Below are positions 1 through 41,740 of a stretch of DNA of 64,000 nucleotides, piece after piece (positions within the stretch are counted from its first letter, which is position 1; each line of letters begins with the position of its first letter). The notes below the pieces were generated by a model that made no database searches, was not told the DNA's origin, and worked only from the letters and a program-made list of their open reading frames with translations. Source of the stretch: Candidatus Peribacteria bacterium (GTDB lineage Bacteria; Patescibacteriota; Gracilibacteria; UBA1369; 2-02-FULL-48-14); the NCBI GenBank assembly GCA_943357175.1, contig CALRGE010000001.1:65232-129231 (forward strand). Direction: 5' to 3'. The position numbers were made by a program, and so were the translations under genes.

Positions 1-2
1 TT

Positions 3-572
3 GCTTATTTTGAGGCGAATATTTTTAATTCCTTCCTTGATAATTTCTATGTTTTGGAGGAGGAGCAAGCAACTCTTCGTGGTGAAACTCTTCCTAATGC
101 TCAAGTTAATACATATTGGAATTTAAGCGGGAAAATGATTATGGTTCAAACAATTGCGGATTTAAAAGGAGAATTTTCTTTAAAAGTTCCGAAGGGCCTT
201 GTGCCCGGTAAAAATCACACTGATGCCCAGGCTGAAGATCTTTCTACAAGGGTATTTAGTCATATTGTACCTGTAGATTTTGTTTTAGCGGAGGATGGGG
301 GCAGCTTATTTGTAATTTATATTTATTTCAAGGAGTTCCTGGCACTTTATGGATTCATAATTTTCTATTTTATAGTATTGATTATTTATGCTTGGAGATG
401 GCCGGAAATAATTTATTTATTTAGCGTATATACAATTTTGATTTTGTTGGATGAAGTAAGAGGACCGATTAATATATTTGTTCATGAGCATATTTTGATA
501 GATATACTCTTCTTCTTTCTGGCTTATCTGTTAAGGAAATTATTCATATTAAAAAGAAGCAAATATGAATAA
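3..572 (+). CDS. C-terminal part of an ORF entering from the left window edge; hypothetical membrane-anchored protein
   Basis: Frame is open from nt 3, with no in-frame stop upstream of the TTG at 54 used by the ORF track. The last ~90 aa are hydrophobic helices (FVIYIYF.., IIFYFIVLIIYAW.., ILFFFLAYLL). The stop overlaps the next start by 8 nt. Confidence 0.5.
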   Translation, partial: AYFEANIFNSFLDNFYVLEEEQATLRGETLPNAQVNTYWNLSGKMIMVQTIADLKGEFSLKVPKGLVPGKNHTDAQAEDLSTRVFSHIVPVDFVLAEDGGSLFVIYIYFKEFLALYGFIIFYFIVLIIYAWRWPEIIYLFSVYTILILLDEVRGPINIFVHEHILIDILFFFLAYLLRKLFILKRSKYE

Positions 573-2856
573 AAAAATAAAAATTTTGATTATGGGAATG
601 GTGCTTGTTTTGACTTTTGCTCATGTTGTTTTCAGTTCTGATTCATCAATCTTACAAAAAATTCAGCTTAGTGATGAAGGTGGTGAGCCTGCACCTGCAC
701 CTGAACCCGCGCCTATTCTTGAACCTACTCCTGCACCGGAACCAATATTGATACATGAGCCTACTCCTGTTCTACAGCCTGAAGTTGTAGCTCTTGAGCC
801 GGTTGTGGAAGAAGTGATTGCAGAGAGTGTGCCTGTTGAATCCGGTACCGGAGAATCAAGTACAGGTCAGGTGCTTGAATCTACTCAAATAAATCTAGTA
901 CCCGTAGAATCTCTTGAAAGTTATATGGCAAAAGGTGAGAAGCCTTTAAGCTGTCTTGATTTGCTGTCAAAAATTAAAGATAAAAATGAGCAGCCAAAAA
1001 TTATTGATTGGTTTACAGGTGACACAAAATGGGAGAGTTTTTGGGAGAGTTTTTGGGAGAGTTTTAAAGAGAGTATTAAAGTAGCGTTTGAGTATATTTC
1101 CACTAATCTTTTCTCTTTATTCTTGAAAATTTCAACACTTGAGACTCCTGCAATGCCTGTTTTGGATAAACTATATACTCAAGATGAACTGTTTAATCGC
1201 TTGTCTACAATAAATTCCGCATCAGAGTGCATTGATTTCTATAATACAATTTTTGTTAATCCCGATTATAAAATATATCAAGATTATCTAAAGACTTATA
1301 ATCCAAATCTGGTTGCTCAAACTTTTGTAAAGGTTGAGGAAAAAGTTGAACTTACACCTGAGACTCAAATTACGGAAGAGGTGATTGAAGTGATTGTTCA
1401 GCCTGAAGTAACGAAAGAAGCCTCGGTGGTGATACTGCCCAAAGTTACTTCCGCAAAAATTAGCCCGTCAGGGGCAAAATCAGGAGATGACTTGTTTGTT
1501 TCGGATGTTGTTTTTGAGAATAATCCAAATGATAAATATACAATGTCTTATCAGTGGCAAGAAAAATATAATCCTGATGGATATTATGATAAAAAATATC
1601 TTAACGCTGCCGATTTGAGGTCATTTTCTTTTGGTGAATTTACTAAGAAAAAATATACTTATAATGTAAATGTATCTAGTGTGGATATTGGTTTCGATTT
1701 TAATTTTTATGGAGTGAATTACAGTAAAATTAATGTTTCTTCAAATGGCTTCTTAAGTTTTGCGCCGTTTCATGATGCAACTGATATAAGTAAGAATCTT
1801 GATTTACCTGTGATTGCACCCTTCGCCCTTAAATCTATAAAAATTACCGATTCAGAATTTCAAACTCAAACATTTGGTGATGCGCCAAATCGAATTTTTG
1901 GACTTATGTGGGCGAGCAAACTTAAAACCGGAGATAAAATGAAGATTAAAATGCAACTTTATGAAAAAGATAATTCCATTTTAATATCATATAAAAATTC
2001 ATCACTTTCTAAAAAAGTTACCGCTGATGACTTAGGAATGTTTATTAGTGCCGATTCTACTTATGATTCAAAATACCCAAGTTTCAATTTTGATTTTAAG
2101 GAAATTTTTACGGATAACCGTGATATACATATTTTCCCAAAATCCAACTTTTTGAGCCTGCAAGATCAAGTCAGCAATACTTTAACAAGTGATATGTTAA
2201 AGCTTGGAGCCTCATATAGAGTTATAATTAATGAATCTTACACAAGTGCTCCTGTGATTATTCTTAAAAAAGGAACTGAAAAAGTTGGAAACATCAGCCC
2301 CACAGAATCTAAGAAAATAGGGAGTAATGAGAATGGAAAAATAGATGATGATCTTGCTCTTAGTGGAACTGGTGACGTTCAAGTGAGCACAGGTTTAGTG
2401 GCAGATACAACTACAACAGTTGTTGAAATAACTCCTACTGTAAGTGAAACGACGATATTAAACACGGCTATCTCAAGTGGCGTATGGGAAAGTTTCAACC
2501 CGTTTAATTTCTTGAGCTATCCAGGTAATCTCAGAATCAATGTTCAGAACTTCGATCAATTAATTTATGATGAACAGACATTATCTTTTACCGGATCACC
2601 TGGCTACATTGTCATTAAATTATCTGATTTTAAAGATAAATATTCTCCACGTTATATCGATAATGATGTTATTTATATAACGTTGAATGGTTTGAAGTCT
2701 AGTGGTACGGAATCAAATGGATATAGATATTATATGTTTCCAATCATTTCAGTTATAAATCAACAAGTAAGTATAGGTACATTTGTTAACTTCTTGGCGA
2801 ATACAATTTCAGGCGCATACGATCTGGAGGCTACTTATACATTTGTAAATCAATAA
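565..2856 (+). CDS. large secreted surface protein (signal peptide, Pro/Glu-rich linker, NIDO-like segment)
   Basis: 763-aa ORF. Signal peptide KKIKILIMGMVLVLTFAHVVFS, linker PAPAPEPAPILEPTPAPEP and a WESFWESFWESF repeat. IGFDFNFYGVNYSKINVSSNGFLSF resembles NIDO-type extracellular domains. The C-terminal tail GAYDLEATYTFVNQ is shared with other secreted proteins of the locus. Confidence 0.7.
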   Translation: MNKKIKILIMGMVLVLTFAHVVFSSDSSILQKIQLSDEGGEPAPAPEPAPILEPTPAPEPILIHEPTPVLQPEVVALEPVVEEVIAESVPVESGTGESSTGQVLESTQINLVPVESLESYMAKGEKPLSCLDLLSKIKDKNEQPKIIDWFTGDTKWESFWESFWESFKESIKVAFEYISTNLFSLFLKISTLETPAMPVLDKLYTQDELFNRLSTINSASECIDFYNTIFVNPDYKIYQDYLKTYNPNLVAQTFVKVEEKVELTPETQITEEVIEVIVQPEVTKEASVVILPKVTSAKISPSGAKSGDDLFVSDVVFENNPNDKYTMSYQWQEKYNPDGYYDKKYLNAADLRSFSFGEFTKKKYTYNVNVSSVDIGFDFNFYGVNYSKINVSSNGFLSFAPFHDATDISKNLDLPVIAPFALKSIKITDSEFQTQTFGDAPNRIFGLMWASKLKTGDKMKIKMQLYEKDNSILISYKNSSLSKKVTADDLGMFISADSTYDSKYPSFNFDFKEIFTDNRDIHIFPKSNFLSLQDQVSNTLTSDMLKLGASYRVIINESYTSAPVIILKKGTEKVGNISPTESKKIGSNENGKIDDDLALSGTGDVQVSTGLVADTTTTVVEITPTVSETTILNTAISSGVWESFNPFNFLSYPGNLRINVQNFDQLIYDEQTLSFTGSPGYIVIKLSDFKDKYSPRYIDNDVIYITLNGLKSSGTESNGYRYYMFPIISVINQQVSIGTFVNFLANTISGAYDLEATYTFVNQ
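1030..1065 (+). repeat. perfect 12-bp tandem repeat x3 (TGGGAGAGTTTT) encoding WESFWESFWESF
   Basis: Read directly: units at 1030-1041, 1042-1053 and 1054-1065. Confidence 0.95.
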
Positions 2857-2927
2857 CAGATCCTGCTTTTCCGTTAAATCTTCTGGTAAATACAGCGTCG
2901 GCAGTTTATTATTTGTATAATTAATAA

Positions 2928-3503
2928 TTGTTTATGAGTTCGAAGAATCAGCTGCTTTTAACGGTAATCTCTGTTTTTTTTGTAACGATAATCTATGTCA
3001 GTTATCCTGCGGATGCGGTTACCTGTGTAGGTGGCGGTGCTCTAACAATCACTGGGCTTCCGGCATCTGTAAATTTCCCGACACAAAGCCCAAGTGTTAC
3101 TTCAACTACTACAGGGATTGTGTTTGGATCATCACTATTTTTTGAAGATATGAGGAATACATCAGCAGGTTTTACATTGAATGTAACTGCTACCGACTTT
3201 ACAGACGTCAATAATATAAATAACACATTCGCCATTGCGAATTTGGCAATCACAAGCGACGGTAACGATACTATTGGATTTGTTGATTGTGACCCGATAA
3301 CAGGTATAACTGCAGGCGCATTAAATTTCTCTGATTTTATAGACTCTGATCTCAACGGCATTTCTGATGCCAAAACTCTTGTTACTGGTGATGTGAGGGC
3401 CAGAATAGGGAAGTATTCTATCGAGCCAGAGTTACAAATTACTATCCCTGCGAGAACTCCGGCTGGTAATTTTAGAACCACACTAACATTTTCTATACAA
3501 TGA
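2928..3503 (+). CDS. small secreted WxL-like surface protein (W replaced by F)
   Basis: 191 aa with an N-terminal signal/TM segment. Paralogous to the 203-aa protein at 11160-11771: GFTLNVTATDF vs GFTMQVTANDF, and C-terminal NFRTTLTFSIQ vs TYTTTLTYTVS. The size and two-motif layout resemble WxL-domain proteins of Firmicutes. Confidence 0.6.
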   Translation: MFMSSKNQLLLTVISVFFVTIIYVSYPADAVTCVGGGALTITGLPASVNFPTQSPSVTSTTTGIVFGSSLFFEDMRNTSAGFTLNVTATDFTDVNNINNTFAIANLAITSDGNDTIGFVDCDPITGITAGALNFSDFIDSDLNGISDAKTLVTGDVRARIGKYSIEPELQITIPARTPAGNFRTTLTFSIQ

Positions 3504-5758
3504 TCTTGAGATTGGCATCAATATTTTGGATTTGTTTTGTCGCACTGTCCTACTTTGTTACGAATAAGAGTCTATACATTCATTCATTTAATAAATATTG
3601 GGATGTCCCAGGTATTTTGACCTTTGGAACTTTCATATTTATTTTGATATTCGGCTTGGTGTTTCTTCTAATTAGAAAAGTTCAATCTTTAAAAGTCTGG
3701 CATCTTATTCTACTGTTTATAATCCTTCTGCCAATTATTGGGACAATAAGATTTGAAGCAGACACTTTTGCAATTTATAGAGGTATACCACTTGAAAGCG
3801 AAGGGGAATTATACTTACAAACTAATGATCCTGTTGTTAATCCAGAGCAAAGTAAAGCTGTAGCATGGCAAGAATACCGGCAATACTTTGAAATACAATC
3901 TACGCAAACCGCATTTTTAAATATTGCCGAAAAAATATTTGTCGCGACAGGATTTGCATTGCTTGTTTTATTAATAATTTATACAATCGGTTTTTGGTTT
4001 TCCAGGCTTATAAAAGAAGGAGTGTCTCCATTGATAAAATTCGGGCTTGGAACACTCACCCTTTCGCTAATTCTTTTTTTGTTGGCGAAGACTTCTCTTC
4101 TAGATAAAAGTACTCTGGCAATAGTTGCCATGCTCGCTATAGCATCTTCATTTTCTGCACTTAAAGAAATTGTCTCTATTTTAAGTCAGAAAATTTTATT
4201 GGGGAAAATCGAATCAGTTTTACTTTCGGCTGGTTTTTTTATTTTTGCTTTTAACTTTATCGAAGTAGTTGAGCCACTTCCTGCCGGTTATGATGACTAC
4301 TCTTACTATCTTAATTTACCCAAACTTCTGGCGGAACATGGTGCTTACGTTCATAGCTACTATCCTTATGCGTTTGCGCTTATTCAGAGTTTTATTTTAA
4401 TTTTATCCGGTAGCCTGGCTGCAACTAAAACCCTCTCATTATTTTTTGCGATTGCTTCTTTGCTTGCTTGCCATTCCTTTTTCAAAAAATTCTCACCGAA
4501 AAATTCCGCGGCTCTTTTGACACTGATTTTTATAGCCATCCCAACAATTTTTGTTCACAGTTATCTTCAGTTAAAAACGGAATTTCCTATGATCTTTTTC
4601 AGCATACTTGCTCTTCAGTGTTTTTATGATTTTCTTAAAAATAAATCTCTTAAATGGATTTTTCTCGCCGGACTTTTTGCCGGCTTTGCTTTCTCAATTA
4701 AATTGACAGCTGCACTCTTGGCGGCTGCTTTGTTACTAATGCTGCTATTCGAATTTAAAATAAAATATGTAGTGATATTATTTTTAGGACTTGCCATCAC
4801 TGTTTTGCCATGGGGGCTTTCTAACATGTCACTGAATCGGCAAATTTCATGGGCTTCTTTAACCAGTGATTCGCAAACGGATCTACCTGTCTATAATAAT
4901 CAGGACTTAAAAATTAACCCTGATTATTGCATTGCAAATGGTGCTGCAGATGCAGATTACGACCGTTATATGGGTGAATATGACAGCAAAATTATAAAAT
5001 ATCTTCTTCTTCCTTGGGACAGCACAATGAAGATTTCCGCCAAATCATTTGTTACAAATATAGGGTTTATTTTACTGGCACTTTGTCCTTTTGCCTTACT
5101 AGGAATAAGAAAGAAAGATAAAATTCATAAAATCTTTTTCGCCGGGGCTTTGTTTTATTGGTTTCTTTGGCTATTGCTTGGAAAAGGTGTGATTTGGTAT
5201 GGGATGAGCGGTTTCCTTTTTCTTTTAATTTTCATGTCAATGAGCTTTGAATTCTTTAAGGAGATTAAAGCAAGAAAAATTCTTTTTTTTACAGTCACCA
5301 TTTTTATTGCGGCATCACTCTTCCTTAGGACAAATATGTTTTTGCAAAGATCGCAGGTCTTAATGCCTTATCTTTCCGGCATGGCGAACGAGACTGAATA
5401 TATAAACTATCAAGGCCCTAATATTTTATATATGGCTGCATTACTCAACTCTGAACCTGATTCAATAATTTACATGTCGAACCACGCAGTTCTAAAGTAT
5501 TTCATCAATAAAAGTGATCAAAGGGTTATTTTCGATCCTTATCTTGATAATTTCACATGTCTCTATCAAGACAAAAATGACGACGCACTTCTTGAAAGAT
5601 TCAAAATTATGGGTGTTGACTATTTGGTACTGATTCCATCTGAAGACTTTTCCACATCATTCGTTAAAGAAGCCCAGGCTGAAGCTTTGAAATTTGCAAA
5701 CGAGAAACTACAACTTGTAATAAGTTATAACTCAACTTACATATATAAAATAATATGA
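3500..5758 (+). CDS. GT-C fold glycosyltransferase, PMT/ArnT (PMT_2)-like, with an N-terminal multi-TM extension
   Basis: 752 aa, polytopic. EPLPAGYDDYSYYLNLPKLL is an acidic loop motif, followed by ...KWIFLAGLFAGFAFSIKLTA, as in PMT_2/ArnT-type transferases. ATGA start/stop overlap with the upstream gene. Paralogue of the next gene. Confidence 0.6.
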   Translation: MILRLASIFWICFVALSYFVTNKSLYIHSFNKYWDVPGILTFGTFIFILIFGLVFLLIRKVQSLKVWHLILLFIILLPIIGTIRFEADTFAIYRGIPLESEGELYLQTNDPVVNPEQSKAVAWQEYRQYFEIQSTQTAFLNIAEKIFVATGFALLVLLIIYTIGFWFSRLIKEGVSPLIKFGLGTLTLSLILFLLAKTSLLDKSTLAIVAMLAIASSFSALKEIVSILSQKILLGKIESVLLSAGFFIFAFNFIEVVEPLPAGYDDYSYYLNLPKLLAEHGAYVHSYYPYAFALIQSFILILSGSLAATKTLSLFFAIASLLACHSFFKKFSPKNSAALLTLIFIAIPTIFVHSYLQLKTEFPMIFFSILALQCFYDFLKNKSLKWIFLAGLFAGFAFSIKLTAALLAAALLLMLLFEFKIKYVVILFLGLAITVLPWGLSNMSLNRQISWASLTSDSQTDLPVYNNQDLKINPDYCIANGAADADYDRYMGEYDSKIIKYLLLPWDSTMKISAKSFVTNIGFILLALCPFALLGIRKKDKIHKIFFAGALFYWFLWLLLGKGVIWYGMSGFLFLLIFMSMSFEFFKEIKARKILFFTVTIFIAASLFLRTNMFLQRSQVLMPYLSGMANETEYINYQGPNILYMAALLNSEPDSIIYMSNHAVLKYFINKSDQRVIFDPYLDNFTCLYQDKNDDALLERFKIMGVDYLVLIPSEDFSTSFVKEAQAEALKFANEKLQLVISYNSTYIYKII

Positions 5759-8274
5759 AAAAAAATCTCCTTGCAAATATTTTCAAACTTTATCCTTTAT
5801 GGATCATTTTTGTAGCCGGATTTTATTTTTGGACAAATCGATCTTTTTTTGAATCTTTCAATCCTAATGTTGGCTTCGTCCACATTATTTTATATTTCAA
5901 TTTGATAGTTGTTAGTGGTTTTATTTTCACTATCGTTACGCCGTATTTAATTAAGCTTTCGAAAATAAAAAAGCTTAATCTACTCCACTTTCTTGCCTTT
6001 CTTTTCTTAACAACCATTTTTGTAAATGTTCTAAGCTTAAGTAGAGGCTACAGCATATATAATGGAGCGCCTCTTATCAAAACCGTAGATGGTGTAAAAT
6101 TTTACGAAAATGAAATCATAAGTTATGAAGATATCATTCTCAAAAATGGTAAAATTTTGAGTGATGAAAAAAAGGCCGAATTAAACTTACCTGTAGAAAT
6201 TGCAGGATCATTTGAGAAGCTCTCTTTTAGTAAAGCTTTATACAGAATCGGAATCCACATGTCTGTGGAATATTTGAAGCTGTTTTTCATTTTATTCTCA
6301 ATGTTGGGCGCCGGACTACTGACTTTTAAGCTTTTTTCACGTGAAATTAATTTAAAAAATACAATTTTTGCCTTTGGACTAGGAACAATAATTTTTTCAG
6401 AAATATTATTTTTATTAGCTAAATTTTCTTATTTAAATCTCACAAGCGTCAGCGTAATAAGCGGAATATTTTTTATTGCCGCTTTAAGCCAATCAAAAAA
6501 TTTGTGGAAAGTTATTAATGAAAATAGCATGGAAGAAAAATTATTTGGTCCACCTTTGCTTATTTTGATATATGGTCTTGCTGTTTTTCTTTCCTGGAAT
6601 TTTTCGGAGGCAATGGAGCCGCTCCCAATTGGCTTCGACGACGTTTCTCTTTACATGAACTTGCCAAACCTAATTGCTCATTTTGGAAGTCTAATAAATA
6701 TCAACTCATTTTATTCCTTTAGTTTGATACAAGGCGCTGCGGAAATACTAAATCCTGCAGGGTCACTTAAAAAGGTTCTCATTTTTGCTTTTGGCACGTT
6801 GTCAGTTTTTCCTGTTTACTTCCTTTTAAAAGAATTTGTATCAAAAAAATATGCTGTGTTTGGTGTTGCGGCATTACTACTTACCCCGACAATTTTTGCA
6901 CATAACTTTCTACAGATAAAAGTTGAAATGTCATTACTGTTTTTCGGAACTTCTTCAATCTTATGTACTTATCTTTGGATGAAAGAGAAAAACTTAAAAT
7001 GGCTTGCTTTGGCAGGTCTATTTTTAGGCTTCGCTTTCACAATAAAACTTACCGCATTTTTTTTGGTAGTAGCAATCATATCAGCTGTGATTTGTAAATT
7101 ATTCTCAAATTACCTTGGAATTTGGAGTTTTTCACTACTTCTCACTATTTTTATCTTCACTCAGAACTTTAGCGGTGAAAGACTGAGTTGGCTTGAAAAT
7201 GATTTTTTCAGAATCATATTCTTTTCACTGCTATTCATAACTGGAGTGGCTGTTATGATTCACAGCATAAAAGATAAAATCTTCAGTCTTAAAAAGCTAC
7301 ATGCAATTGTAATACTCGGTGTTTTTTTACTCCTACCCTTAATTCCGTGGGTGATTTCCAATGTTTTGATTAATAAGGAGCTGAGCATTTCATCAGCGAT
7401 GTTTAATAACAAAGCCGATTTTAATGTCGAAGATTTATCCCAATATGTTTGTGTGAATGAAGGTATTACCGCCACTGATTATGAAAGATACATGCCTGAG
7501 CACTCAGGGCAATTGATGGATTTTTTGTATCTACCATGGGATTTAACAATGAGCACTTCGTCAAAATCAGTTATCACTAATATTGGCTTCTTATTTTTGG
7601 CTATTTGTCCGGCCTTTTTCTTCACATTTGAAAAGAAACATGTCGCTGCATTTGCACTCTGTGGAATTTTCTTTTGGATTTTCTGGGCAATCTCAGCCAA
7701 GGGAATAATTTGGTACGGCTTTACAGGCTTCGCTTTTCTTATTTTACTTTTTACGAAAAGCTTTGCGGCACTATGCGAATCGAATAAAGTATCAAAATAC
7801 TCTGCCACAATTGCTGTCTTAGGTTTTTTTATAATCTCATTTTTCTTCAGAAGCAATATGTACATTTCCAGGACACACAGTTTTGTTCCGTACTATGCAG
7901 GTTTGGCTACTTATGAAAACTATGTGGACAATTTATATCCTGAACATCGAAAAATGGCTGATATCTTGAATAGCGATCCAATTGCAAAAATATATCTCAC
8001 CGACAACGCTTTCCTTTTCTATTTTATCAATGAAAATAATCTAAGAGTATATCGTGACCACTACCTTGATACATTTGACTGTCTAGATTCAAGCGGCAAG
8101 GCAGTGGATGAGTTGAAAAAGAACTTTGATTACATAGTAATCAGCGCACCGGTGAATGATCTTGATTTCGGCCAAGGTTTACACGGGAGGACCGTAAAAC
8201 TTTTTGACTTGGCAAATCAAAATTTTACATTCATAACGGGAAATAAAAATACCTATCTTTTCAGGGTAAATTGA
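5755..8274 (+). CDS. GT-C fold glycosyltransferase, PMT/ArnT (PMT_2)-like; paralogue of 3500-5758
   Basis: 839 aa, polytopic. It contains EPLPIGFDDVSLYMNLPNLI, KWLALAGLFLGFAFTIKLTA and the shared YERYM..LLPWD..TNIGF..L..CP segment. ATGA overlap with the upstream gene. Confidence 0.6.
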   Translation: MKKNLLANIFKLYPLWIIFVAGFYFWTNRSFFESFNPNVGFVHIILYFNLIVVSGFIFTIVTPYLIKLSKIKKLNLLHFLAFLFLTTIFVNVLSLSRGYSIYNGAPLIKTVDGVKFYENEIISYEDIILKNGKILSDEKKAELNLPVEIAGSFEKLSFSKALYRIGIHMSVEYLKLFFILFSMLGAGLLTFKLFSREINLKNTIFAFGLGTIIFSEILFLLAKFSYLNLTSVSVISGIFFIAALSQSKNLWKVINENSMEEKLFGPPLLILIYGLAVFLSWNFSEAMEPLPIGFDDVSLYMNLPNLIAHFGSLININSFYSFSLIQGAAEILNPAGSLKKVLIFAFGTLSVFPVYFLLKEFVSKKYAVFGVAALLLTPTIFAHNFLQIKVEMSLLFFGTSSILCTYLWMKEKNLKWLALAGLFLGFAFTIKLTAFFLVVAIISAVICKLFSNYLGIWSFSLLLTIFIFTQNFSGERLSWLENDFFRIIFFSLLFITGVAVMIHSIKDKIFSLKKLHAIVILGVFLLLPLIPWVISNVLINKELSISSAMFNNKADFNVEDLSQYVCVNEGITATDYERYMPEHSGQLMDFLYLPWDLTMSTSSKSVITNIGFLFLAICPAFFFTFEKKHVAAFALCGIFFWIFWAISAKGIIWYGFTGFAFLILLFTKSFAALCESNKVSKYSATIAVLGFFIISFFFRSNMYISRTHSFVPYYAGLATYENYVDNLYPEHRKMADILNSDPIAKIYLTDNAFLFYFINENNLRVYRDHYLDTFDCLDSSGKAVDELKKNFDYIVISAPVNDLDFGQGLHGRTVKLFDLANQNFTFITGNKNTYLFRVN

Positions 8275-8946
8275 TTATTTTCCTGTTTTCTTCTTTTTCT
8301 TGTCTGATGAGATTCCTCTTTCTTTACTCTGATGAATAGCCATTACTATTGATGCAACAAGTATTAAAAGACCTGGGATTATATATTTACTATAATTATT
8401 TGAAGTGGTATCTGAGTTAATGTCATCTAATGGAGCAGGCTCTACATATGCTTCTTCTGCAACAACAGTTAAATGAACTCTTAGGCCAATTCTTGCAACA
8501 GATGCTATTGTTCCTTCGGTGCTAGGGTCAGCAACTTCTATAGCTGTAATGCCTCCCCAATATTCCCCTAATGCTTGAGTGGCAGGAACAGTAATTGTTC
8601 CCTGTAAAATCTGATTTTCTCCTGCCAGAAGGCTTATCATAGGAGTTGGCAATTTTCCCCAAAGTCCTAACTCAATCTTTGCTTCACTTGCGTCTTTTAG
8701 GGCAAAAGTTCCTGTATCTGACTTCGTGGAATCAACAATATCAATCTCAAATGTACTATCGTAATCATTGCCATTAGTGATAATAAAGTTTAAATCTACG
8801 CTAGCACCAGGGTAGGCACTCACTTCAACATAGCCATTATTGTCATCTGCTCCATTATATGGAGCAAGTCCTATGCTAGTTGCTCCTGCAATTGGTATTG
8901 ATAAAAAGAACGATGATAGGAACAGACTTGTAAAAAAGTTTTTCAT
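8275..8946 (-). CDS. DUF916-like cell-surface protein with C-terminal TM anchor and basic tail
   Basis: 223 aa with a signal peptide. FALKDASEAKIELGLWGKL..., GEYWGGITAIEV and ARIGLRVHLTV match the DUF916 pattern (G-x-Y-x-GG then R-I-G-x-R strand). C-terminal TM followed by KKKKKTGK. Confidence 0.55.
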   Translation of the reverse strand: MKNFFTSLFLSSFFLSIPIAGATSIGLAPYNGADDNNGYVEVSAYPGASVDLNFIITNGNDYDSTFEIDIVDSTKSDTGTFALKDASEAKIELGLWGKLPTPMISLLAGENQILQGTITVPATQALGEYWGGITAIEVADPSTEGTIASVARIGLRVHLTVVAEEAYVEPAPLDDINSDTTSNNYSKYIIPGLLILVASIVMAIHQSKERGISSDKKKKKTGK

Positions 8947-8962
8947 AAGGGGTGGTTAATAA

Positions 8963-9655
8963 TTATTTTTTGGTGGAAGAAAACTGGGATACAAGAATAA
9001 AGATAAGTGCGACAGAGCTGATTATAATGGAAGACAATATATATTTCCAATATAATTTAAATTTATCAATCTCCATTTTCTCAATAATTTGAGGATTATC
9101 AGTAACCACTACCTTAACTCTACTAACTATTCTCACTTCTGTTGCCACTCCAATAGACTCATCAAGCCCGTATCCTTCCGTCGTAGCCGCACCACCCCAG
9201 TAAACTCCATTTTTAGTGTCAGCTGGAATCGTGAGAGTAAAGCCAATATTTTCCGTGCTCTCAGCTTCCATGTTTATATTCTCTTCCTCAAAGGTTAACC
9301 ATTTACCTATATTGGATTGTTCTTCTCCAATAGATTTGAGAGAAAAATGTTCTTGTGTCGATCCATCTACAACGTCAATACTTGAGATAGAAACACTTGT
9401 CTTGTAGCCATTTCTATTTATAACAGTTGCGCTGTCGGAAATAGTTTCTCCCGCCTTTAGTTCATAAATAAAATAAAAAGGATTTTCAGCGCTTGGAAAA
9501 GTGGGCACAATACTTACACTACCTAATAATGTGGGATTCAAAATTTTATATACAGCAAAACCTCCAATAAGGAGGACTGCTGTACAAATAAGAAAGATTA
9601 TTTTCTTACTATTCTTTTGATATTGGCCTAGTATGTGGGATAAGAATTTTGGCAC
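8963..9655 (-). CDS. DUF916-like cell-surface protein with N- and C-terminal TM segments
   Basis: 230 aa with GVYWGGAATTEG ... EVRIVSRVKVVV and a C-terminal TM. The annotated start overlaps the upstream gene by 47 nt, and no alternative ATG is available. Confidence 0.5.
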   Translation of the reverse strand: MPKFLSHILGQYQKNSKKIIFLICTAVLLIGGFAVYKILNPTLLGSVSIVPTFPSAENPFYFIYELKAGETISDSATVINRNGYKTSVSISSIDVVDGSTQEHFSLKSIGEEQSNIGKWLTFEEENINMEAESTENIGFTLTIPADTKNGVYWGGAATTEGYGLDESIGVATEVRIVSRVKVVVTDNPQIIEKMEIDKFKLYWKYILSSIIISSVALIFILVSQFSSTKK

Positions 9656-10730
9656 CTTTAGTGATTATATATGGCGAAGCTATTCTATTGATTTTTGCTA
9701 ATAATTTCCAGTCAATTTTATTGCGACTTGCATAAGTGATTAAGCTTTCATCTTTTTTGGCAACGGACTCTTTACAAGAAGCAATCAGAGCCATGAGCTT
9801 TCTATGTCTCCAAAAGAAGAATATGAAGGAAATAACAAATATTGTTAATCCTGCAGATAATTCTTTTACAGGGAGTATAAAGAAAGAAAGTGTTTCCGTT
9901 TCACTTCCGCTGTATTTTGTCATTTCTTCATCTGAAATTTTTCCTACTGCAGAACTGGGTTTATAATTAAGAGTGCTTGTCGCTGTAATATAACCAATTT
10001 TTGGAGCTTGCCCCCAATTTATTTTAGGAGTGCCTGTGGATCCCGGTAGAAGTATCCCCATCTCTGTGTTTACAGAGTCAAGCTTAAAGAAAAGATTCTT
10101 TAATTCCAAAGTAGAGTTTACGGTCATGTTCATATTCCCTTCATTTTTGTAAGAATAGTTAAAATTATGAGATCCGTCCTCTTCAATACTATGTGAATAG
10201 GCGTCTGTTCCATCTGGACCCATAGTAAATTTGAATAATTTTTCACCAGACACAGATATATACATCCTAACTCCAATACGTACTACAGAAGCCATCGTTG
10301 AGCCGCTGTTACTGGATGATATGGCAGTTACAACCAATCCTCCGGCATAATCACCCGGAGATACTGAAGAAGGAATATTAACTGTAAATTTCACTGGTAT
10401 TGAAGTATTTGCTTTCATACTCAGTATATTCTTTTCAAGTTTGACCCAAGATCCTAAGAGAGTCTGCTCTTCGGAATTATCCTTTAGAGCAAAACTTCCC
10501 GAGTCAGACATAGTTGCATCTACAGCTAATACTGAAACACCGGTGTCGTAGCCTGTAGCGTTTGTTACAACAGCAACACCGCTCACACTTGCACCGGGGT
10601 CTAAAGTATAACTATACATACCGCTGGCGCTATCCTCCGGCATAATTACAACGCTACCTGCCGCAAAAACAGAAGGAACAAAAAGGGTCATTATAAACAA
10701 ACTCGTAAAAAAATAGTTTATTTTTTTCAT
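9609..10730 (-). CDS. DUF916 + DUF3324-like cell-surface protein (CscA-like architecture) with TM anchor and a short LysM-like tail
   Basis: 373 aa with a signal peptide. FALKDNSEEQTLLGSWVKL, GDYAGGLVVTAI and VVRIGVRMYISV are followed by a second beta-rich domain and then the TM segment GLTIFVISFIFFFW. The tail is LLAKINRIASPYIITKGAKILIP. Confidence 0.55.
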   Translation of the reverse strand: MKKINYFFTSLFIMTLFVPSVFAAGSVVIMPEDSASGMYSYTLDPGASVSGVAVVTNATGYDTGVSVLAVDATMSDSGSFALKDNSEEQTLLGSWVKLEKNILSMKANTSIPVKFTVNIPSSVSPGDYAGGLVVTAISSSNSGSTMASVVRIGVRMYISVSGEKLFKFTMGPDGTDAYSHSIEEDGSHNFNYSYKNEGNMNMTVNSTLELKNLFFKLDSVNTEMGILLPGSTGTPKINWGQAPKIGYITATSTLNYKPSSAVGKISDEEMTKYSGSETETLSFFILPVKELSAGLTIFVISFIFFFWRHRKLMALIASCKESVAKKDESLITYASRNKIDWKLLAKINRIASPYIITKGAKILIPHTRPISKE

Positions 10731-10731
10731 T

Positions 10732-11034
10732 TTAGTATTGATATGAATAATTATCCGGATCCACTATCTGTATGCTAACTTTGGTTTGAGCACTAACGCT
10801 GGCTTCAGGTCTTGCATCTATAATCGTGCCATCCTTGCCTAAAAGTAAAGGGTAAGCCTCTGATTTGCTTTCTGAATTGGACTCATCTGATGCAAGGGAA
10901 ACAGTACCGCTTTTAATCAAAGCGAACTCAGCATCACCTTCTTTTGCATCTGTCGAAAGTAGTGACTGTCCTCCAATTAATCCTGCAACAAAAACTGCGG
11001 AAATAATTATAGAGAATATAAAGGATTTAATCAT
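10732..11034 (-). CDS. small secreted or membrane-anchored protein of the surface locus
   Basis: 100 aa. N-terminal hydrophobic segment IFSIIISAVFVAGLIGG. Tightly packed between locus genes (2-nt gap to the next start). Confidence 0.5.
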   Translation of the reverse strand: MIKSFIFSIIISAVFVAGLIGGQSLLSTDAKEGDAEFALIKSGTVSLASDESNSESKSEAYPLLLGKDGTIIDARPEASVSAQTKVSIQIVDPDNYSYQY

Positions 11035-11049
11035 AGTGTCCGGTTAGGA

Positions 11050-11107
11050 ATTGAATGCTTACGAACGGTGATAAGAAGATCTTAACACCGTCACGTTAGA
11101 ATTCAAT
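11050..11107 (-). promoter_or_regulatory. long imperfect intercistronic stem-loop downstream of the WxL-like gene
   Basis: About 18 paired positions by hand: 11065-11070 pair with 11086-11091, and 11050-11056 pair with 11101-11107, with further pairs between. No T-run follows on the minus strand, so it is not a classical terminator. Confidence 0.35.
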
Positions 11108-11159
11108 GAATTTTAGCCTCAAACAAAGATGATTGGTAAATTTTAGAGAATGTTAGCAG

Positions 11160-11771
11160 TTAAGATACTGTGTAAGTAAGTGTAGTTGTGTAGGTAGCCG
11201 CTGGTTCGAAAGCAGGGACAATAAGTCGAAGAACAGGTTCAAAAGTACATGACATTACACGTACTACAGCAGTTCCAACCAACAGATCTTTAGCTGTTGA
11301 AGCATCATCAAGAGCACCATCTGCTCCTAGGTCAACTGCATCCTCGAATGCACTGAAGGTGTCCTGAGATCGAGTAATACCTGCTGTACAGTCAGAACTT
11401 GAAACAGCTGTTAATGCATCATTGGCGTCAGTTTCAATTGAAAGTACAGTGTTATTCATTGAATTAGCATATGGGTTCAGACTTGTGTCTTTAAAGTCAT
11501 TAGCTGTAACTTGCATTGTAAAGCCTAATGCTCCACCTCTAGTGTCTGCAAAGGCAACGCTATTGTTAGCGTACGCTTGTGTAACAGTTGTTGCTGTCAC
11601 AGACGGAACAATGTTAGGAAAGTTTTGAGATACCGGAGTAGTTAGTGTGAAAGCACCACCTGTTAACTGTGCGCTTGATGTTGTTTCAGCAGCGCTTGCC
11701 ATTGCAACCAATCCAAGGTTTGCAAGCAAAGCCATACCGATAACAACAGAAACTAATTTTTTATTTTTCAT
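11160..11771 (-). CDS. small secreted WxL-like surface protein (W replaced by F/Y); first gene of the minus-strand surface operon
   Basis: 203 aa. Signal peptide ending MASAAETT. Contains GFTMQVTANDF and the C-terminal ATYTTTLTYTVS. Paralogue of 2928-3503. Confidence 0.6.
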   Translation of the reverse strand: MKNKKLVSVVIGMALLANLGLVAMASAAETTSSAQLTGGAFTLTTPVSQNFPNIVPSVTATTVTQAYANNSVAFADTRGGALGFTMQVTANDFKDTSLNPYANSMNNTVLSIETDANDALTAVSSSDCTAGITRSQDTFSAFEDAVDLGADGALDDASTAKDLLVGTAVVRVMSCTFEPVLRLIVPAFEPAATYTTTLTYTVS

Positions 11772-11801
11772 TTTTAAGAAATGTTAGTATTAATATATAT
11801 T

Positions 11802-11821
11802 ATTAACTAGTACTAGTTAAT
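11802..11821. promoter_or_regulatory. perfect 20-bp palindrome ATTAACTAGTACTAGTTAAT (candidate operator) in the divergent promoter region
   Basis: Read directly. It lies ~30 nt upstream of the 11771 start and overlaps a possible -35 (TTAACT, 17 nt, TATATT on the minus strand). Confidence 0.45.
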
Positions 11822-12050
11822 TTCTTTGTTTGAGTGCTGAAATTTCAAGGAACAAATCTCTTTAAAATCTACCGAATCACATAACTATATCATGAATTGC
11901 ATGGCCAGTCAAACCCATATTTTTAAATTAATGTAGCCTATCTCAAAGATAGGCGATTGATAGATCTAAGTGAACACAATATTTTTTACTTTCCACGTGC
12001 AATTAGTGCTTTTTTGTGCTAAAAATTTTAGGCATTTAATTTGTTTGTAG

Positions 12051-14507
12051 ATGAGGAAAATTGCCCTATTAATTTCTTTTAGTCTTGTTTTCGGGCTATC
12101 TCCTTTGGTTTTTGCATCTGGTGAAGGATCAATTACGTCAATGATTGAAGGTGAAGGTTTTGGTGGAGATGTTGCGCCAATTTTTGAATTGCGTGCGAAT
12201 GATAAGAGTGCCAATTATAATGCGGAAACGGAAACTTATGAATTTGATTATGCTCCGGGTGCAAAATTTTCAGATATGTTTTATCTAAGTAATTTAACTT
12301 CAGATCAAACTTTGAACTTAAGTTTTTTGACTCAAGATGCATATACTGATTCTTTAGGTCAGGTGTCTTACTCTGCAGATACTCAGTATCATATTGGTAA
12401 GTGGACAACGGTTCCGAAATCTGTGGATCTTGCTGCAAGCGCAGTCCAGGAACTTCCTTTTGAAATTAATTTGCCTAATGTAGCTTCACCGACAAATGAT
12501 TTTTCAGGAGCAATTTACGTAAAAATTCAAAACTCTTCTGACACAAGCAAGTTTGCTGTGAAAATTAAAATTAAATCAACAAGCACTGAGGCGGCAGCTG
12601 GTCAGTTTAAATCTGAGTTTACTCGTAAATCTGACGGCGAGACTTATAGTGAGTTCAATTTAAAACTTACAAATGCAGGTAATACCTTCTTAAGAGGTAG
12701 TCACAAATTGGCTTCCGGTACTAATGTAATTGATGATTTGGCGCTCGGTTTGATGCCTGGTGAAACCTTAGAGAAAATTATAAAACTCGAGAAGTCTTTC
12801 GGTTCATATAGAATTTTTTCTAAGTTTGAAAATGTGAACGGAGAGCTTACAGAGAGTTTGGTTGGGACTTATTTTCTTTTCCCGCATATATATTTCTACC
12901 TTTTCATTTTCTTGCTTCTTGTTGGAGTCGGAGTTGGAGGATTCTTTATATATAGGTGGAATCCAAAGTACGCGATTATTTATGGCGTTTCGATTTTGCT
13001 TATCTCACTGGTTTTGATTTACTTTTACTATCCACGAGAAAATGCAGCGGCTGATGATAATTCTGTACTTTTGAGTCAGTTGGATTCGAAGAGAGGATCA
13101 AATTTGAGAGTTCCCGCTCAATATTCTTTGAATGGTTTTGAGCAATATTTCTTTACTGATGTCTTACTTCAAAATACTGAACTGATAAGAGATGAGGATT
13201 TTGTTTCAACGTCTAAGTCTGAAGATTTTTCTCTTGGTGATTCACAGGAAATTATTTGTGAAGATTTGCCTGATCCTATTGTAAGTTCCGAGCCGACGAT
13301 TCAGGCTGATTCAAGTTTTAAAACTCTTGACTGTGGAACTGACGCCGCTTTTACTGTTTCCTCTGATTTCCAGCCTGATTCACTATCTTTATCTGAAGTA
13401 TTCTTGGCCGGACCCGCAGGGGCAAGGTTTATTTCAGGAGTTGAAATTGCAAATAATAGTGAGAAGGCGATTCCATTAACTGATTATGCTTTCCAGATTG
13501 GAACAAAACAGATGAACTTTTCAGGAGCGATTGCCGCAAAACAAAGAAAACTGCTTTATTTGAACAGAAAGCTTGGCAGCGTTGCTTTTGGTATGAGTTT
13601 TTTGTATAAGTCAGCTGTTTTGGGAACTTTCACCTACGATCCTAAAAATGTGATGTATGCAAATACTATTTATTCCAGTGTAGCTAAATTAGGTGAGGTG
13701 GCTGCAAAAAATTTAATTCGTAGTCAAAGTGTTGCAACAAATGATACTCAAGGTGCAGGCGAATGGATCTTTTCAATTCACTCTACCCCATTCAAGGATA
13801 ATATTTTTGCGAATACAAGGCCGAAAGCCTCTTTTCAATTGTTGAGCTCTGAGGAAACTCCTGATGGACTTAAACTTAGTTTTACAGCAGCGGCCTCAAG
13901 TGATATCGATGGGGATTCTCTGAAATTTAAATGGTTTTTCAGTAATCATCAACAAGGTTTAAATGAAACTTTAAGTGGGGAAGTGGTTGATGTATTTGTA
14001 AAAAACAACAAGAATATTTCTATTGAGTTGACTGTGAGCGATGTTTTTGGTGGTGTAGATGTTATGAAGACTCAGTTTAATTTAGACAGAGAGTTTGATT
14101 TTAGTGATACAGCTCTTTTCACCCTTTACGATAATTTTAATACAGCACCTGCAAGTAATTATGCACATGGTAAAATCAGGTTTGATGATGTTTCCTCCGG
14201 TGAAACAAAAACTGCATATCTAGATAATCTTAGTGATGTTGCTGCCACTAAGATTTATTTTACGCTAGGAGCATTTGAAGGTGAAGATTCTCAAATTCTT
14301 ATTCCCGCATCGTCGGTTTTGATTCTAAATGGTTTGAGAGTTGAGGGTGGTTCGGTTACCGGTGCTACAATTTTTGATATCACAGAAATTGTACAAGAAA
14401 TGAGAAAACTTGAGATTGAGAATATTTCTCCGATACTTCAGGTGAAGTTTCCTGATGAAGTTTCTGAGGGTTACTACAGTGCATCTGTGACTTATACTTA
14501 CTACTAA
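12051..14507 (+). CDS. large surface protein: DUF916/DUF3324-like N-terminal module, TM segments, lamin-tail-like and PKD-like domains
   Basis: 818 aa with signal peptide LLISFSLVFGLSPLVFASG. NDFSGAIYVKI..FAVKIKIKS is followed by TM helices (FYLFIFLLLVGVGVGGFFIY; AIIYGVSILLISLVLIYFYY). LSEVFLAGPAGARFISGVEIANNSEKAIPLTDYAF is LTD-like. SFTAAASSDIDGDSLKFKWFFSN...IELTVSDVFGG is PKD-like. The tail is GYYSASVTYTYY. Confidence 0.65.
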   Translation: MRKIALLISFSLVFGLSPLVFASGEGSITSMIEGEGFGGDVAPIFELRANDKSANYNAETETYEFDYAPGAKFSDMFYLSNLTSDQTLNLSFLTQDAYTDSLGQVSYSADTQYHIGKWTTVPKSVDLAASAVQELPFEINLPNVASPTNDFSGAIYVKIQNSSDTSKFAVKIKIKSTSTEAAAGQFKSEFTRKSDGETYSEFNLKLTNAGNTFLRGSHKLASGTNVIDDLALGLMPGETLEKIIKLEKSFGSYRIFSKFENVNGELTESLVGTYFLFPHIYFYLFIFLLLVGVGVGGFFIYRWNPKYAIIYGVSILLISLVLIYFYYPRENAAADDNSVLLSQLDSKRGSNLRVPAQYSLNGFEQYFFTDVLLQNTELIRDEDFVSTSKSEDFSLGDSQEIICEDLPDPIVSSEPTIQADSSFKTLDCGTDAAFTVSSDFQPDSLSLSEVFLAGPAGARFISGVEIANNSEKAIPLTDYAFQIGTKQMNFSGAIAAKQRKLLYLNRKLGSVAFGMSFLYKSAVLGTFTYDPKNVMYANTIYSSVAKLGEVAAKNLIRSQSVATNDTQGAGEWIFSIHSTPFKDNIFANTRPKASFQLLSSEETPDGLKLSFTAAASSDIDGDSLKFKWFFSNHQQGLNETLSGEVVDVFVKNNKNISIELTVSDVFGGVDVMKTQFNLDREFDFSDTALFTLYDNFNTAPASNYAHGKIRFDDVSSGETKTAYLDNLSDVAATKIYFTLGAFEGEDSQILIPASSVLILNGLRVEGGSVTGATIFDITEIVQEMRKLEIENISPILQVKFPDEVSEGYYSASVTYTYY

Positions 14508-15193: not shown

Positions 15194-15619
15194 TTAGCAA
15201 TAGTTTTGGAGGAGCATGATATTACCCTGCTCTTTTGTCGTTTCGTAATATTTTTCGTCTGCTGTTACAAAAGTAGCGCCCTCACTAATTGCAAGTGCGT
15301 GATAGGCTGCATCATAAAATGAGATTTTTTTATATTTTTTCATTAAATCTAAAGCCAAGGTAATTTTTGATATATTCAAAATTTGTTCCCGTATAGTTGA
15401 AACTTTTAGTTTTGAGATGAAATTTAGTGCAAGTTCAGGTGCTTTTCTAGATATAGTGTTAGCCACTTCCATGTAACAATGCCCTGGTATAAGTATCTTT
15501 ATATTTCTTTCAATAAGATCATCCTGTATTTTTTCAGCTTGTTCCATGCCATTTTGTTCTTCTAATAACCATTTTATAATGATTGAAGCATCAATAACCA
15601 TAAGTTTACTCTCTTCCAT
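15194..15619 (-). CDS. vapC: PIN-domain toxin (VapC-like)
   Basis: Contains MVIDASIIIKWL (first acidic residue), ...CYMEVANT... and FYDAAYHALAISEGATFVTADEKY, which together give the typical PIN layout. Lies directly downstream of a small antitoxin-like gene. Confidence 0.8.
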   Translation of the reverse strand: MEESKLMVIDASIIIKWLLEEQNGMEQAEKIQDDLIERNIKILIPGHCYMEVANTISRKAPELALNFISKLKVSTIREQILNISKITLALDLMKKYKKISFYDAAYHALAISEGATFVTADEKYYETTKEQGNIMLLQNYC

Positions 15620-15848
15620 AATTTTTTAATTTAATAAATTCTTCAGTTGTCATCTTTAATTTTGCTTTTTTTCGCATTTCTCTAATTCCCTCAAATGCGA
15701 CCTTATTCCTAAAATCTTCCAATCCTCTTTGTATAGAATAATTCAAGAAATCGCTTCTTTCTCCATCCGGAATAAATTCTTTTATTTCTTGAAGAACATG
15801 AATATCTATCATGAAGTTAGTTTTCTTCCGTTTTGATAAGGTAAGCAT
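15606..15848 (-). CDS. small antitoxin-like protein (VapB-type partner)
   Basis: 80 aa, overlapping or abutting the PIN gene. A palindromic operator lies immediately upstream. Confidence 0.6.
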   Translation of the reverse strand: MLTLSKRKKTNFMIDIHVLQEIKEFIPDGERSDFLNYSIQRGLEDFRNKVAFEGIREMRKKAKLKMTTEEFIKLKNYGRE

Positions 15849-26301: not shown

Positions 26302-26345
26302 ACAATGGTTTTGCAGTTTTGTAAAGACTGTGATATAACTTTTAT

Positions 26346-26903
26346 ATGGATTTTTTAAAGGCAGTTCAGGCGTTGCGGGAAGGGAAGGTTGTGGCTCATG
26401 CAACTGAAACTTGTTATGGTTTGGCTGTAGATATTTTTTCTCATGATGCTGTTTTGAGATTATATGACATGAAAAAGATGGATTTAGATAAGCCGGTGAG
26501 TATTTTATGTACTTCACTTGATGAGGCAAAGAAATACGGCGAATTTTCAGAAAAGGCGTTGAGTTTGGCAGAGAAATACTGGCCCGGGCCCCTTACGATT
26601 GTTGTGAGCAGGAAGGCGGCATTGCCTGTGTGGATAAATCCGGGTGTTTCTACGATAGGAATCAGAGTTAGTTCAAATGAAATAACTCGTGAATTAGTTG
26701 AAGGTTTTGGAGGTCCAATTACTACTACAAGTGCAAACATTCACGGTTTGCCCCAGGCTTATTCTGTTGATGAATTTGCTGAATTGAAACCAGATTTTAT
26801 TCTGGATAGTGGAAGGATCCCGCCAATTTCTCCTTCTACTATTGTTGAGGTGATAGGGGATAGTTTGAAAATAATTCGACAAGGTGATCTGAAGATTGGG
26901 TGA
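26346..26903 (+). CDS. tsaC: L-threonylcarbamoyladenylate synthase, YrdC/TsaC type
   Basis: Contains HATETCYGLAVD, KPVSILC, WPGPLTIVV and TTSANIHG, the characteristic YrdC-domain motifs. Confidence 0.85.
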   Translation: MDFLKAVQALREGKVVAHATETCYGLAVDIFSHDAVLRLYDMKKMDLDKPVSILCTSLDEAKKYGEFSEKALSLAEKYWPGPLTIVVSRKAALPVWINPGVSTIGIRVSSNEITRELVEGFGGPITTTSANIHGLPQAYSVDEFAELKPDFILDSGRIPPISPSTIVEVIGDSLKIIRQGDLKIG

Positions 26904-39638: not shown

Positions 39639-39641
39639 AAT

Positions 39642-41670: not shown

Positions 41671-41740
41671 AGCTAAGCAATTTTACTGAATTTCTCAAAA
41701 AATGAAAGTAAATTAATTCAGCTTTTTTTCAGGTCGTTTT

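Follow-up and report, generated by a model that had tools for sequence, protein, structure and literature searches.

What kind of system is encoded at the left end of a 64,000-nucleotide stretch of the genome of a Candidatus Peribacteria bacterium (assembly GCA_943357175.1, contig CALRGE010000001.1, positions 65,232 to 129,231; hereafter the window, numbered from its first base)? Positions 1-14507 contain 11 open reading frames (ORFs), and a hydropathy scan finds a signal peptide or an anchor helix on each product. A sequence-only reading of this segment had proposed a divergent homologue of the csc/WxL surface-protein loci of lactobacilli and enterococci, expanded to four CscA-like genes and coupled to two GT-C glycosyltransferases, and the ORFs that it named are present at the sizes claimed.

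We show here that two small secreted proteins of this locus, of 191 and 203 residues, are homologues of the WxL domain in which both tryptophans are replaced by Phe/Tyr, and that they are encoded beside four membrane-anchored DUF916 proteins. The proposed homology stands, on the strength of the DUF916 matches, profile similarity to the WxLIP1 protein of Enterococcus faecium, and the diagnostic residues of the WxL domain. The locus represents a variant of a system already known rather than a new kind of system, and is likely to be a native, divergent WxL/Csc-type cell-surface locus of this member of the Candidate Phyla Radiation (CPR, or Patescibacteria).

WxL-like proteins without tryptophan

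The 191- and 203-residue proteins are 40% identical and, as had been recognized from the sequence, both contain GFT[LM]xVTAxDF and a C-terminal TTLT[FY][ST][IV]. The 203-residue protein matches the Pfam WxL family (PF13731) at 23.2 bits (E=8e-5, model positions 78-210 of 214) and the 191-residue protein at 14 bits (E=0.05), relative to a gathering cut-off of 25 bits. The motifs that replace WxL are F-T-M and Y-T-V in the former and F-T-L and F-S-I in the latter. Neither protein contains any Trp, so a literal definition by two W-x-L motifs fails; the first tryptophan (W1) is replaced by Phe and the second (W2) by Tyr or Phe, both at homologous positions, in agreement with the earlier proposal. 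In the 203-residue protein the residues concerned are F84 and Y200.

In WxL domains an Asp at W1-8 is paired with an Arg at W1-6, and hydrophobic residues are present at W1-10, W1+4 and W2-2 (PMC9772566, section 3.5). In the segments FADTRGGALGFTMQV and FEDMRNTSAGFTLNV, counting from the Phe at W1, there is Asp at -8, Arg at -6, Phe at -10 and Val at +4, with Leu at W2-2 in TTLT[YF]; all of the published diagnostic residues are present at exact spacing in both window proteins. Because the WxL side chains have been described as a buried hydrophobic platform (PMC9772566), aromatic replacement is structurally conservative.

Word-indexed homologue searches with the 203-residue protein and with the family alignment returned almost nothing beyond the query, and only 70 relatives were recovered when 1.84 billion representative proteins were searched exhaustively with a profile. 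The family profile matches the 191-residue protein at E=7e-69, and within the 64-kb window it matches the 191- and 203-residue ORFs alone. Half of the aligned family (33 of 66 members, comprising the two window paralogues and 64 matches) match Pfam WxL, the best at 39.3 bits. The link of the window proteins to Pfam WxL is transitive, running through these family members. The first motif position is F in 30, W in 20 and Y in 11 of the relatives, with F or Y in the closer and W in the more distant ones, and the C-terminal motif position is mostly F or Y. Alignment of the F/Y class with the W class by hhalign gives a probability of 99.9%, a value that is partly expected because both classes come from one search.

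The AlphaFold2 (AF2) model of the 203-residue protein is all-beta with a predicted local distance difference test score (pLDDT) of 86. Foldseek comparison with the PDB gave no match at E<=0.001; the best, non-significant, matches are pilin or tip-adhesin subunits, the E. faecium complex 9i25 is absent from the best 50 of 723, and no small-WxL structure was identified for comparison.

Four membrane-anchored DUF916 proteins and their relatives

The proteins of 223, 230, 373 and 818 residues align over about 150 N-terminal residues containing the segments FALKD..E....G.W.KL, G-x-Y-x-G-G and R-I-G-x-R. A profile of this module, whose presence in all four proteins had been proposed from these motifs, matches the paralogues at E=1e-60 to 1e-82 and no other ORF of the window. 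Consistent with the suggested expansion to four CscA-like genes, WxLIP_PGBD (DUF916) is the best Pfam family of each, at 33.8 bits (223 residues), 23.8 (230), 25.4 (373) and 24.3 (818), with a cut-off of 27.3 bits.

A 14-sequence module profile searched against the PDB reaches E. faecium WxLIP1 (9i25_C, 9i1y_A) at E=5e-8, covering the whole PGBD. The same protein is found by fold: the top three Foldseek matches of the AF2 model of the 373-residue protein are the EfmWxLIP1 chains 9i25_C, 9i1y_A and 9i1y_B, with 9i25_C ('WxLIP from E. faecium locus A bound to long WxL') matching at E=1.3e-12 over 277 aligned columns. The confidence of this model is modest (pLDDT 68.7), and it rests on a shallow alignment of seven rows. 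After WxLIP, the model resembles the pilus chaperones CfaA, CsuC and Caf1M, which have two immunoglobulin (Ig) domains, at E=1e-9 to 1e-7. Of the structural comparisons suggested by the sequence-only reading, that of the anchored protein recovers WxLIP1 and that of the WxL-like protein gives no significant match.

The module had been described as usually followed by a second beta domain and a transmembrane (TM) anchor. C-terminal TM helices are indeed predicted by the hydropathy scan in all four, at residues 186-204 (223 residues), 205-223 (230), 288-306 (373) and 282-300 (818), but the second beta domain is found only in the 373- and 818-residue proteins, the other two being module and membrane helix only. 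The 230-residue protein has an additional N-terminal helix (18-36). The 818-residue protein has a two-helix membrane hairpin (282-300 and 307-325), which would place its last ~490 residues back outside the cell; it has weak PKD and LTD Pfam matches, and its final 26 residues resemble, without significance, the last two WxL-like strands. This protein and the 763-residue secreted protein were considered here as candidates for large WxL proteins, and both are rejected as such by hhalign (probability 1-3%).

Identification of the second domain as DUF3324, anticipated for CscA-like proteins, is rejected by sequence. Neither the window proteins nor 19 domain-2 segments match DUF3324 (PF11797) at E<=1, ten long relatives have no match to it at E<=0.01, and the domain-2 profile does not reach EfmWxLIP1 at E<=10. 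An N-x-G-N signature and weak matches point to a CARDB/DUF7507-type sandwich, and since the Foldseek alignment with 9i25_C spans 277 columns, an Ig-like domain does occupy the DUF3324 place. The N-terminal NQIDKxxxYFDLK motif of WxLIP is not kept, the aligned segment being merely aromatic-rich (e.g. SGMYSYTLDPG) relative to ENQIDKAIGYFDLL in EfmWxLIP1.

The 373-residue protein carries a LysM match of 18.9 bits at 9636-9758 on the minus strand (residues ~325-365), after its single C-terminal TM helix. The LysM after the helix is clear in relatives, at 33-53 bits (locus L090, 1622-2704, and loci L096, L099, L100, L101 and L108), and relatives pass the respective Pfam cut-offs for PGBD and for LysM. 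A basic RHRK directly follows the helix, so that by topology LysM should be in the cytoplasm, separated by the membrane from the peptidoglycan that it would normally bind. A PGBD-Ig-TM-LysM architecture exists, and no description of it was found in the literature searched.

Conservation of the locus in relatives had been put forward as a check, and four related loci (L007, L008, L090 and L095) retain its architecture. L007 and L008 (50-64% protein identity) share the order WxL-like, small protein, long WxLIP-like, two short WxLIP-like, two GT-C, WxL-like and large protein, and L008 additionally retains the 818-residue gene and the HrcA-GrpE-PIN flank. The core is also kept in L095 (33% identity), with a GT-C gene 1.8 kb away, and in L090 (~29% identity), without GT-C; orthologues of the 230-residue protein are present in L007, L008 and L095. 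Seeded with the long WxLIP-like protein, a scan of metagenomes recovered 22 loci with GC contents from 33% to 69%, at least 17 of which have a WxL-like gene beside a WxLIP-like gene. Pairing at this frequency far exceeds what chance would give, and the family is not confined to Peribacteria. All ten long WxLIP-like metagenomic relatives score above the Pfam PGBD cut-off (31.6-53.2 bits).

In some metagenomic loci the pairs form arrays, the two modules are fused, or a WxL-like domain lies at the C-terminus of a large protein. Alternating WxL-like/WxLIP-like arrays occur in L096 (67-11813, with six WxL-like and five WxLIP-like matches within 12 kb), L099 and L100; a 716-residue protein of L096 (674-2824) matches both profiles, and larger proteins with a WxL-like domain range from 344 to 1428 residues.

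Several observations weigh against reading the locus as a system of the WxL/Csc type. Most window scores lie below the Pfam cut-offs, including both WxL scores and three of the four WxLIP_PGBD scores, only the 223-residue protein passing. The WxL-like family profile reaches no chain in the PDB, and although 9i25 contains a long WxL, nothing in the PDB matches the WxL-like model significantly. By sequence there is no DUF3324, the domain proposed to bind the host; the LysM tail, cytoplasmic by predicted topology, is unexplained by the model set out below; and linkage to GT-C genes is limited to the closest clade (the window, L007, L008 and L095), being absent from L090 and the other loci. The low scores and the lack of a structural match for the WxL-like protein would also be expected if these were generic Ig-like or beta-sandwich surface proteins unrelated to WxL/Csc, with the Pfam matches being low-level cross-matches, and the weak alternative Pfam matches (fn3_5, NPCBM_assoc and GH123_N) and the many two-domain Ig proteins among the Foldseek matches could be read in the same way. 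However, WxLIP_PGBD is the best family in all four paralogues and its cut-off is passed by all ten long relatives as well as by the one window protein, the solved WxLIP1 is the top match both by sequence profile and by fold, the residues diagnostic of WxL retain their exact spacing, and about 20 independent loci contain both families. This explanation is largely refuted, and we consider it very improbable.

Organization of the locus and its host

The features of the locus are listed in Table 1. The locus extends beyond the left window edge, and its gene order from the first WxL-like gene is 191(WxL)-GTC-GTC-223-230-373-100-203(WxL)-818. The plus-strand genes upstream of 8274 have ends that overlap or nearly abut, with the start of the 752-residue GT-C gene overlapping the stop codon of the 191-residue WxL-like gene. 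The minus-strand operon (203-100-373-230-223) converges on them without a spacer, and the 818-residue gene is divergent from the 203-residue gene.

Table 1. Coordinates of predicted features in the first 14,507 positions of the window
Feature	Coordinates	Strand	Remarks
3' part of 547-residue gene, surface protein with C-terminal membrane helices	1..572 (ORF 54-572)	+	Window edge cuts gene; full gene in L001
763-residue secreted protein, Pro-rich linker and WESF x3 repeat	565..2856	+	Signal peptide; no Pfam/NCBIfam match
WxL-like small secreted protein 1, 191 residues	2928..3503	+	Pfam WxL E=0.05; FxL and FxI motifs
GT-C glycosyltransferase 1, 752 residues	3500..5758	+	Pfam PMT_2 37.8 bits; multiple TM segments
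GT-C glycosyltransferase 2, 839 residues	5755..8274	+	Pfam PMT_2 38.6 bits, PMT 29.6 bits
Short WxLIP-like protein, 223 residues	8275..8946	-	Signal peptide, PGBD/DUF916, C-terminal TM; WxLIP_PGBD 33.8 bits
Short WxLIP-like protein, 230 residues	8963..9655	-	N-terminal TM, PGBD, C-terminal TM; WxLIP_PGBD 23.8 bits, E=4.8e-5
Long WxLIP-like protein, 373 residues	9609..10730	-	Signal peptide, PGBD, CARDB-like beta domain, TM, LysM-like tail
Small Ser-rich protein, 100 residues, secreted or N-terminally anchored	10732..11034	-	N-terminal hydrophobic helix only
WxL-like small secreted protein 2, 203 residues	11160..11771	-	Pfam WxL E=8e-5; FxM and YxV motifs
Divergent intergenic region, minus-strand operon versus 818-residue gene	11772..12050	.	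Gene layout
Giant WxLIP-like protein, 818 residues	12051..14507	+	Signal peptide, PGBD, second beta domain, TM hairpin, ~490 extracellular residues

The convergent 839-residue GT-C and 223-residue genes end on adjacent bases (8274/8275), with no terminator-like site between them. A promoter-like TTGACT-17-TATAGT is present at 11912-11884 on the minus strand, in a window where the number of such sites equals chance expectation, and promoter and terminator scans gave counts no different from those in shuffled sequence. A 159-residue antisense ORF (3002-3481, minus strand) lies fully within the 191-residue gene; it is not annotated as a gene in public assemblies and probably results from codon composition.

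The PMT_2 matches of both GT-C proteins and the PMT match exceed their cut-offs (26.1 bits for PMT_2). The two enzymes have an invariant EPLP[IA]G[FY]DD loop, which in the 839-residue protein is EPLPIGFDD and is invariant in three orthologues. The 752-residue GT-C is kept in L007 and L008, and a homologue of the 839-residue GT-C is also present in L095; a scan of the genome contig collection with the GT-C alignment gave no match, the patterns used being too lineage-specific. Linkage to GT-C genes, part of the earlier proposal, is seen in this locus and its closest clade but not beyond, so the GT-Cs may be neighbours rather than parts of the system. Peribacteria are reported to encode many polyprenyl-phosphate mannose synthases (PMC4736985), and together with the invariant loop this makes it plausible that the GT-Cs glycosylate the WxL-like proteins, which are Thr-rich (14%), or the wall.

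No NCBIfam model matches any locus protein. The 547-residue product has only weak Ig-like Pfam matches (DUF5018-rel and Big_13), and a gene is at the same position in L007 and L008. The 763-residue protein has a positional counterpart of 812 residues in L007 and L008; neither a WxL-like domain (by hhalign) nor a Pfam match was found in it. A perfect 12-nucleotide tandem repeat of three copies (1030-1065), encoding WESFWESFWESF, is located within this gene downstream of a Pro/Glu-rich linker. The 100-residue protein occupies the place of CscD in Firmicute clusters and is conserved in L007, L008 and L093, and it has no Pfam family match. The small LPXTG protein of csc loci is not found: a regular-expression search of the last 45 residues of every window ORF of at least 60 residues finds no LPXTG-like motif, sortase genes not having been searched for.

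The sequence-only reading had taken the genome as not looking like that of a Firmicute and had raised the possibility of an episymbiotic CPR bacterium. The GltX protein encoded in the window is 65-68% identical to those of five genomes, all titled Candidatus Peribacteria, with a syntenic adjoining gene in three of the five, whereas the next matches, from Parcubacteria and other Patescibacteria, are at 50% identity or less; the organism is therefore a member of the CPR. Reading frames in the window are intact under code 11. The GC content of the locus equals that of the remaining window (~37%), and L008 shares the HrcA-GrpE-PIN flank, both of which support a locus native to the lineage. The exact locus proteins are also present in the metagenome-assembled genomes GCA_943357165.1 and GCA_943355105.1.

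Recent acquisition from a Firmicute, or mis-binning of a Firmicute contig, would leave the locus with no bearing on CPR biology. Firmicutes account for more than 91% of known WxL sequences (PMC9772566), and the low GC content would suit many Bacilli. However, GltX with its syntenic neighbour is on the same 64-kb stretch, a DUF5667 protein is on the same contig, in public assemblies the contig is as long as 171 kb, L008 keeps the locus with the same housekeeping flank at ~50% identity, and the nearest homologues of the window proteins are of the F/Y type, not the W type. We regard such recent acquisition or mis-binning as most improbable, the least probable of the explanations considered here.

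A cell-envelope neighbourhood at 36028-43156 encodes a DUF5667/FecR protein, MraY, a D-Ala-D-Ala carboxypeptidase, an LCP (LytR-CpsA-Psr) protein and ComEC. DUF5667, MraY, the carboxypeptidase and LCP fit a peptidoglycan-bearing monoderm, and the LCP enzyme implies attachment of glycopolymers to the wall, which bears on the possible role of the GT-Cs. The locus is flanked by genes for HrcA, GrpE, a PIN toxin and GAPDH. Immediately downstream (15194-15848, minus strand), a 141-residue PIN-domain protein overlaps an 80-residue upstream ORF, in the same place as in L008, and this looks like a toxin-antitoxin pair.

Large ORFs without a Pfam family are typical of CPR genomes, and the window has several, at 22417-26529 (minus strand, 1370 residues), 49962-51884 (plus, 640 residues), 55141-56934 (plus, 597 residues) and 19617-20789 (plus, 390 residues), none of which matches the WxL-like or WxLIP-like profiles. 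An 838-residue low-complexity protein (ORF 30972-33488) contains a 264-nucleotide repeat twice (32685-33207, 76% identity); its CENP-S, DUF668 and TbpB_C Pfam matches lack supporting stretches and look spurious.

Possible roles and relation to known systems

A strand-insertion model has been proposed for WxLIP and WxL (PMC10599100). By analogy, and in line with the title of 9i25, the DUF916 domains would donate a beta-strand or hairpin to the incomplete beta-sandwich of the anchorless WxL-like proteins and so keep these at the cell surface. The FALKD..E....G.W.KL segment is a likely candidate for the donated hairpin; it falls in the lowest-confidence PGBD part of the model (residues 71-90, pLDDT 58), which fits a hairpin that orders only on binding, although this is suggestive only. 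The 818-residue paralogue may add its ~490 extracellular residues, with their PKD/LTD-like parts, as an outward-facing and probably adhesive module, and the GT-Cs could use polyprenyl-phosphate sugars to glycosylate the Thr/Ser-rich proteins or the underlying wall polymer. Overall, the products would form a wall-associated protein scaffold, probably attaching to another cell or polymer, and from this we infer, tentatively, a possible role in host attachment.

Another possibility is that the locus encodes a polysaccharide-capture or utilisation complex, as originally hypothesized for Csc of Lactiplantibacillus plantarum, and does not mediate cell-to-cell attachment, with the GT-Cs acting on wall glycans. 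Carbohydrate utilisation was proposed for the csc clusters by Siezen et al. 2006 (PMC1534035), cellulose and xylan binding is reported for WxL proteins of L. brevis (PMC9026416), and there are weak matches here to glycosidase-associated beta-sandwich domains. However, no glycoside hydrolase, sugar transporter or regulator is encoded in or adjoining the locus, the flank consisting of HrcA, GrpE, the PIN toxin and GAPDH, and we consider such a complex unlikely.

A more far-reaching proposal joins the attachment scaffold to the resemblance to pili. The WxLIP-like/WxL-like pair might be the membrane-anchored equivalent of a donor-strand chaperone and its subunit, widespread in uncultured monoderms and serving in Peribacteria as a glycosylated surface device for gripping the host cell; two pilin-like WxL subunits would be displayed on the four anchors and decorated by dedicated GT-Cs, and the cytoplasmic LysM might couple the device to peptidoglycan precursors or sites of wall synthesis. 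We hold this combination to be doubtful, with small odds in its favour. If this reading is true, the loss of both tryptophans would mark a functionally distinct, non-Firmicute branch of the family.

To our knowledge, the attachment of ultrasmall CPR bacteria to their hosts is largely unknown beyond type IV pili. As a likely native WxL/Csc-type system, the locus provides a defined and conserved set of exported proteins for Peribacteria, for which the enterococcal WxLIP-WxL complex can serve as a structural template, and it is a concrete candidate for how CPR cells might build an adhesive surface. The WxL family appears to reach well beyond the Bacilli, with its name-giving tryptophans dispensable; no paper linking WxL to Patescibacteria was found in a literature search.

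Three known systems offer comparisons. The likeness to chaperone-usher pili (CfaA/CfaE, CsuC/CsuA-B, Caf1M/Caf1) is one of possible mode of action and not of membership. It comprises the similarity of the 373-residue model to two-Ig chaperones and the non-significant similarity of the WxL-like model to pilins and tip adhesins, together with strand donation to an incomplete beta-sandwich, the binding mode predicted for WxLIP-WxL (PMC10599100). Unlike those pili, the Peribacteria system has no usher, outer membrane, evidence of polymerisation or sequence homology, and its 'chaperone' is membrane-anchored.

The csc clusters of L. plantarum (Siezen et al. 2006, PMC1534035) similarly consist of an exported-protein operon with CscA-like (DUF916 and TM), CscB/C-like (WxL) and small fourth (CscD) proteins. 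In contrast to these, the 100-residue Peribacteria protein has no LPXTG sortase signal and there are no carbohydrate-active genes nearby.

The closest comparison is with the WxL loci of E. faecium and E. faecalis (9i1y, 9i25; PMC10599100, PMC9772566), in which WxLIP has the architecture DUF916-DUF3324-TM and is encoded with a small and a large WxL protein. Common to both are DUF916/PGBD on a membrane-anchored protein, small secreted proteins made of a WxL-type domain alone, an ectodomain of two beta domains with a TM helix after it (in the 373-residue protein), and the Asp/Arg and hydrophobic positions around motif 1. The Peribacteria proteins differ in having F and Y/F for the two Trp and M/L and V/I for the Leu residues, and the second domain is CARDB-like and not DUF3324. 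There are four WxLIP-like paralogues, two without a second domain and one with a TM hairpin and ~490-residue extracellular extension, a large WxL protein is lacking, the locus includes two GT-C genes, and the host organism is a CPR bacterium. The locus falls under the operational definition of a WxL cluster (PMC10599100) only if the divergent domains count as WxL and the DUF3324-less protein as WxLIP. Four literal features of the family fail here (the Trp residues, DUF3324, the NQIDK motif and LPXTG), and four are added, namely the LysM tail after the TM helix of the 373-residue protein, the giant protein with its TM hairpin, the GT-C genes, and the set of four anchor proteins.

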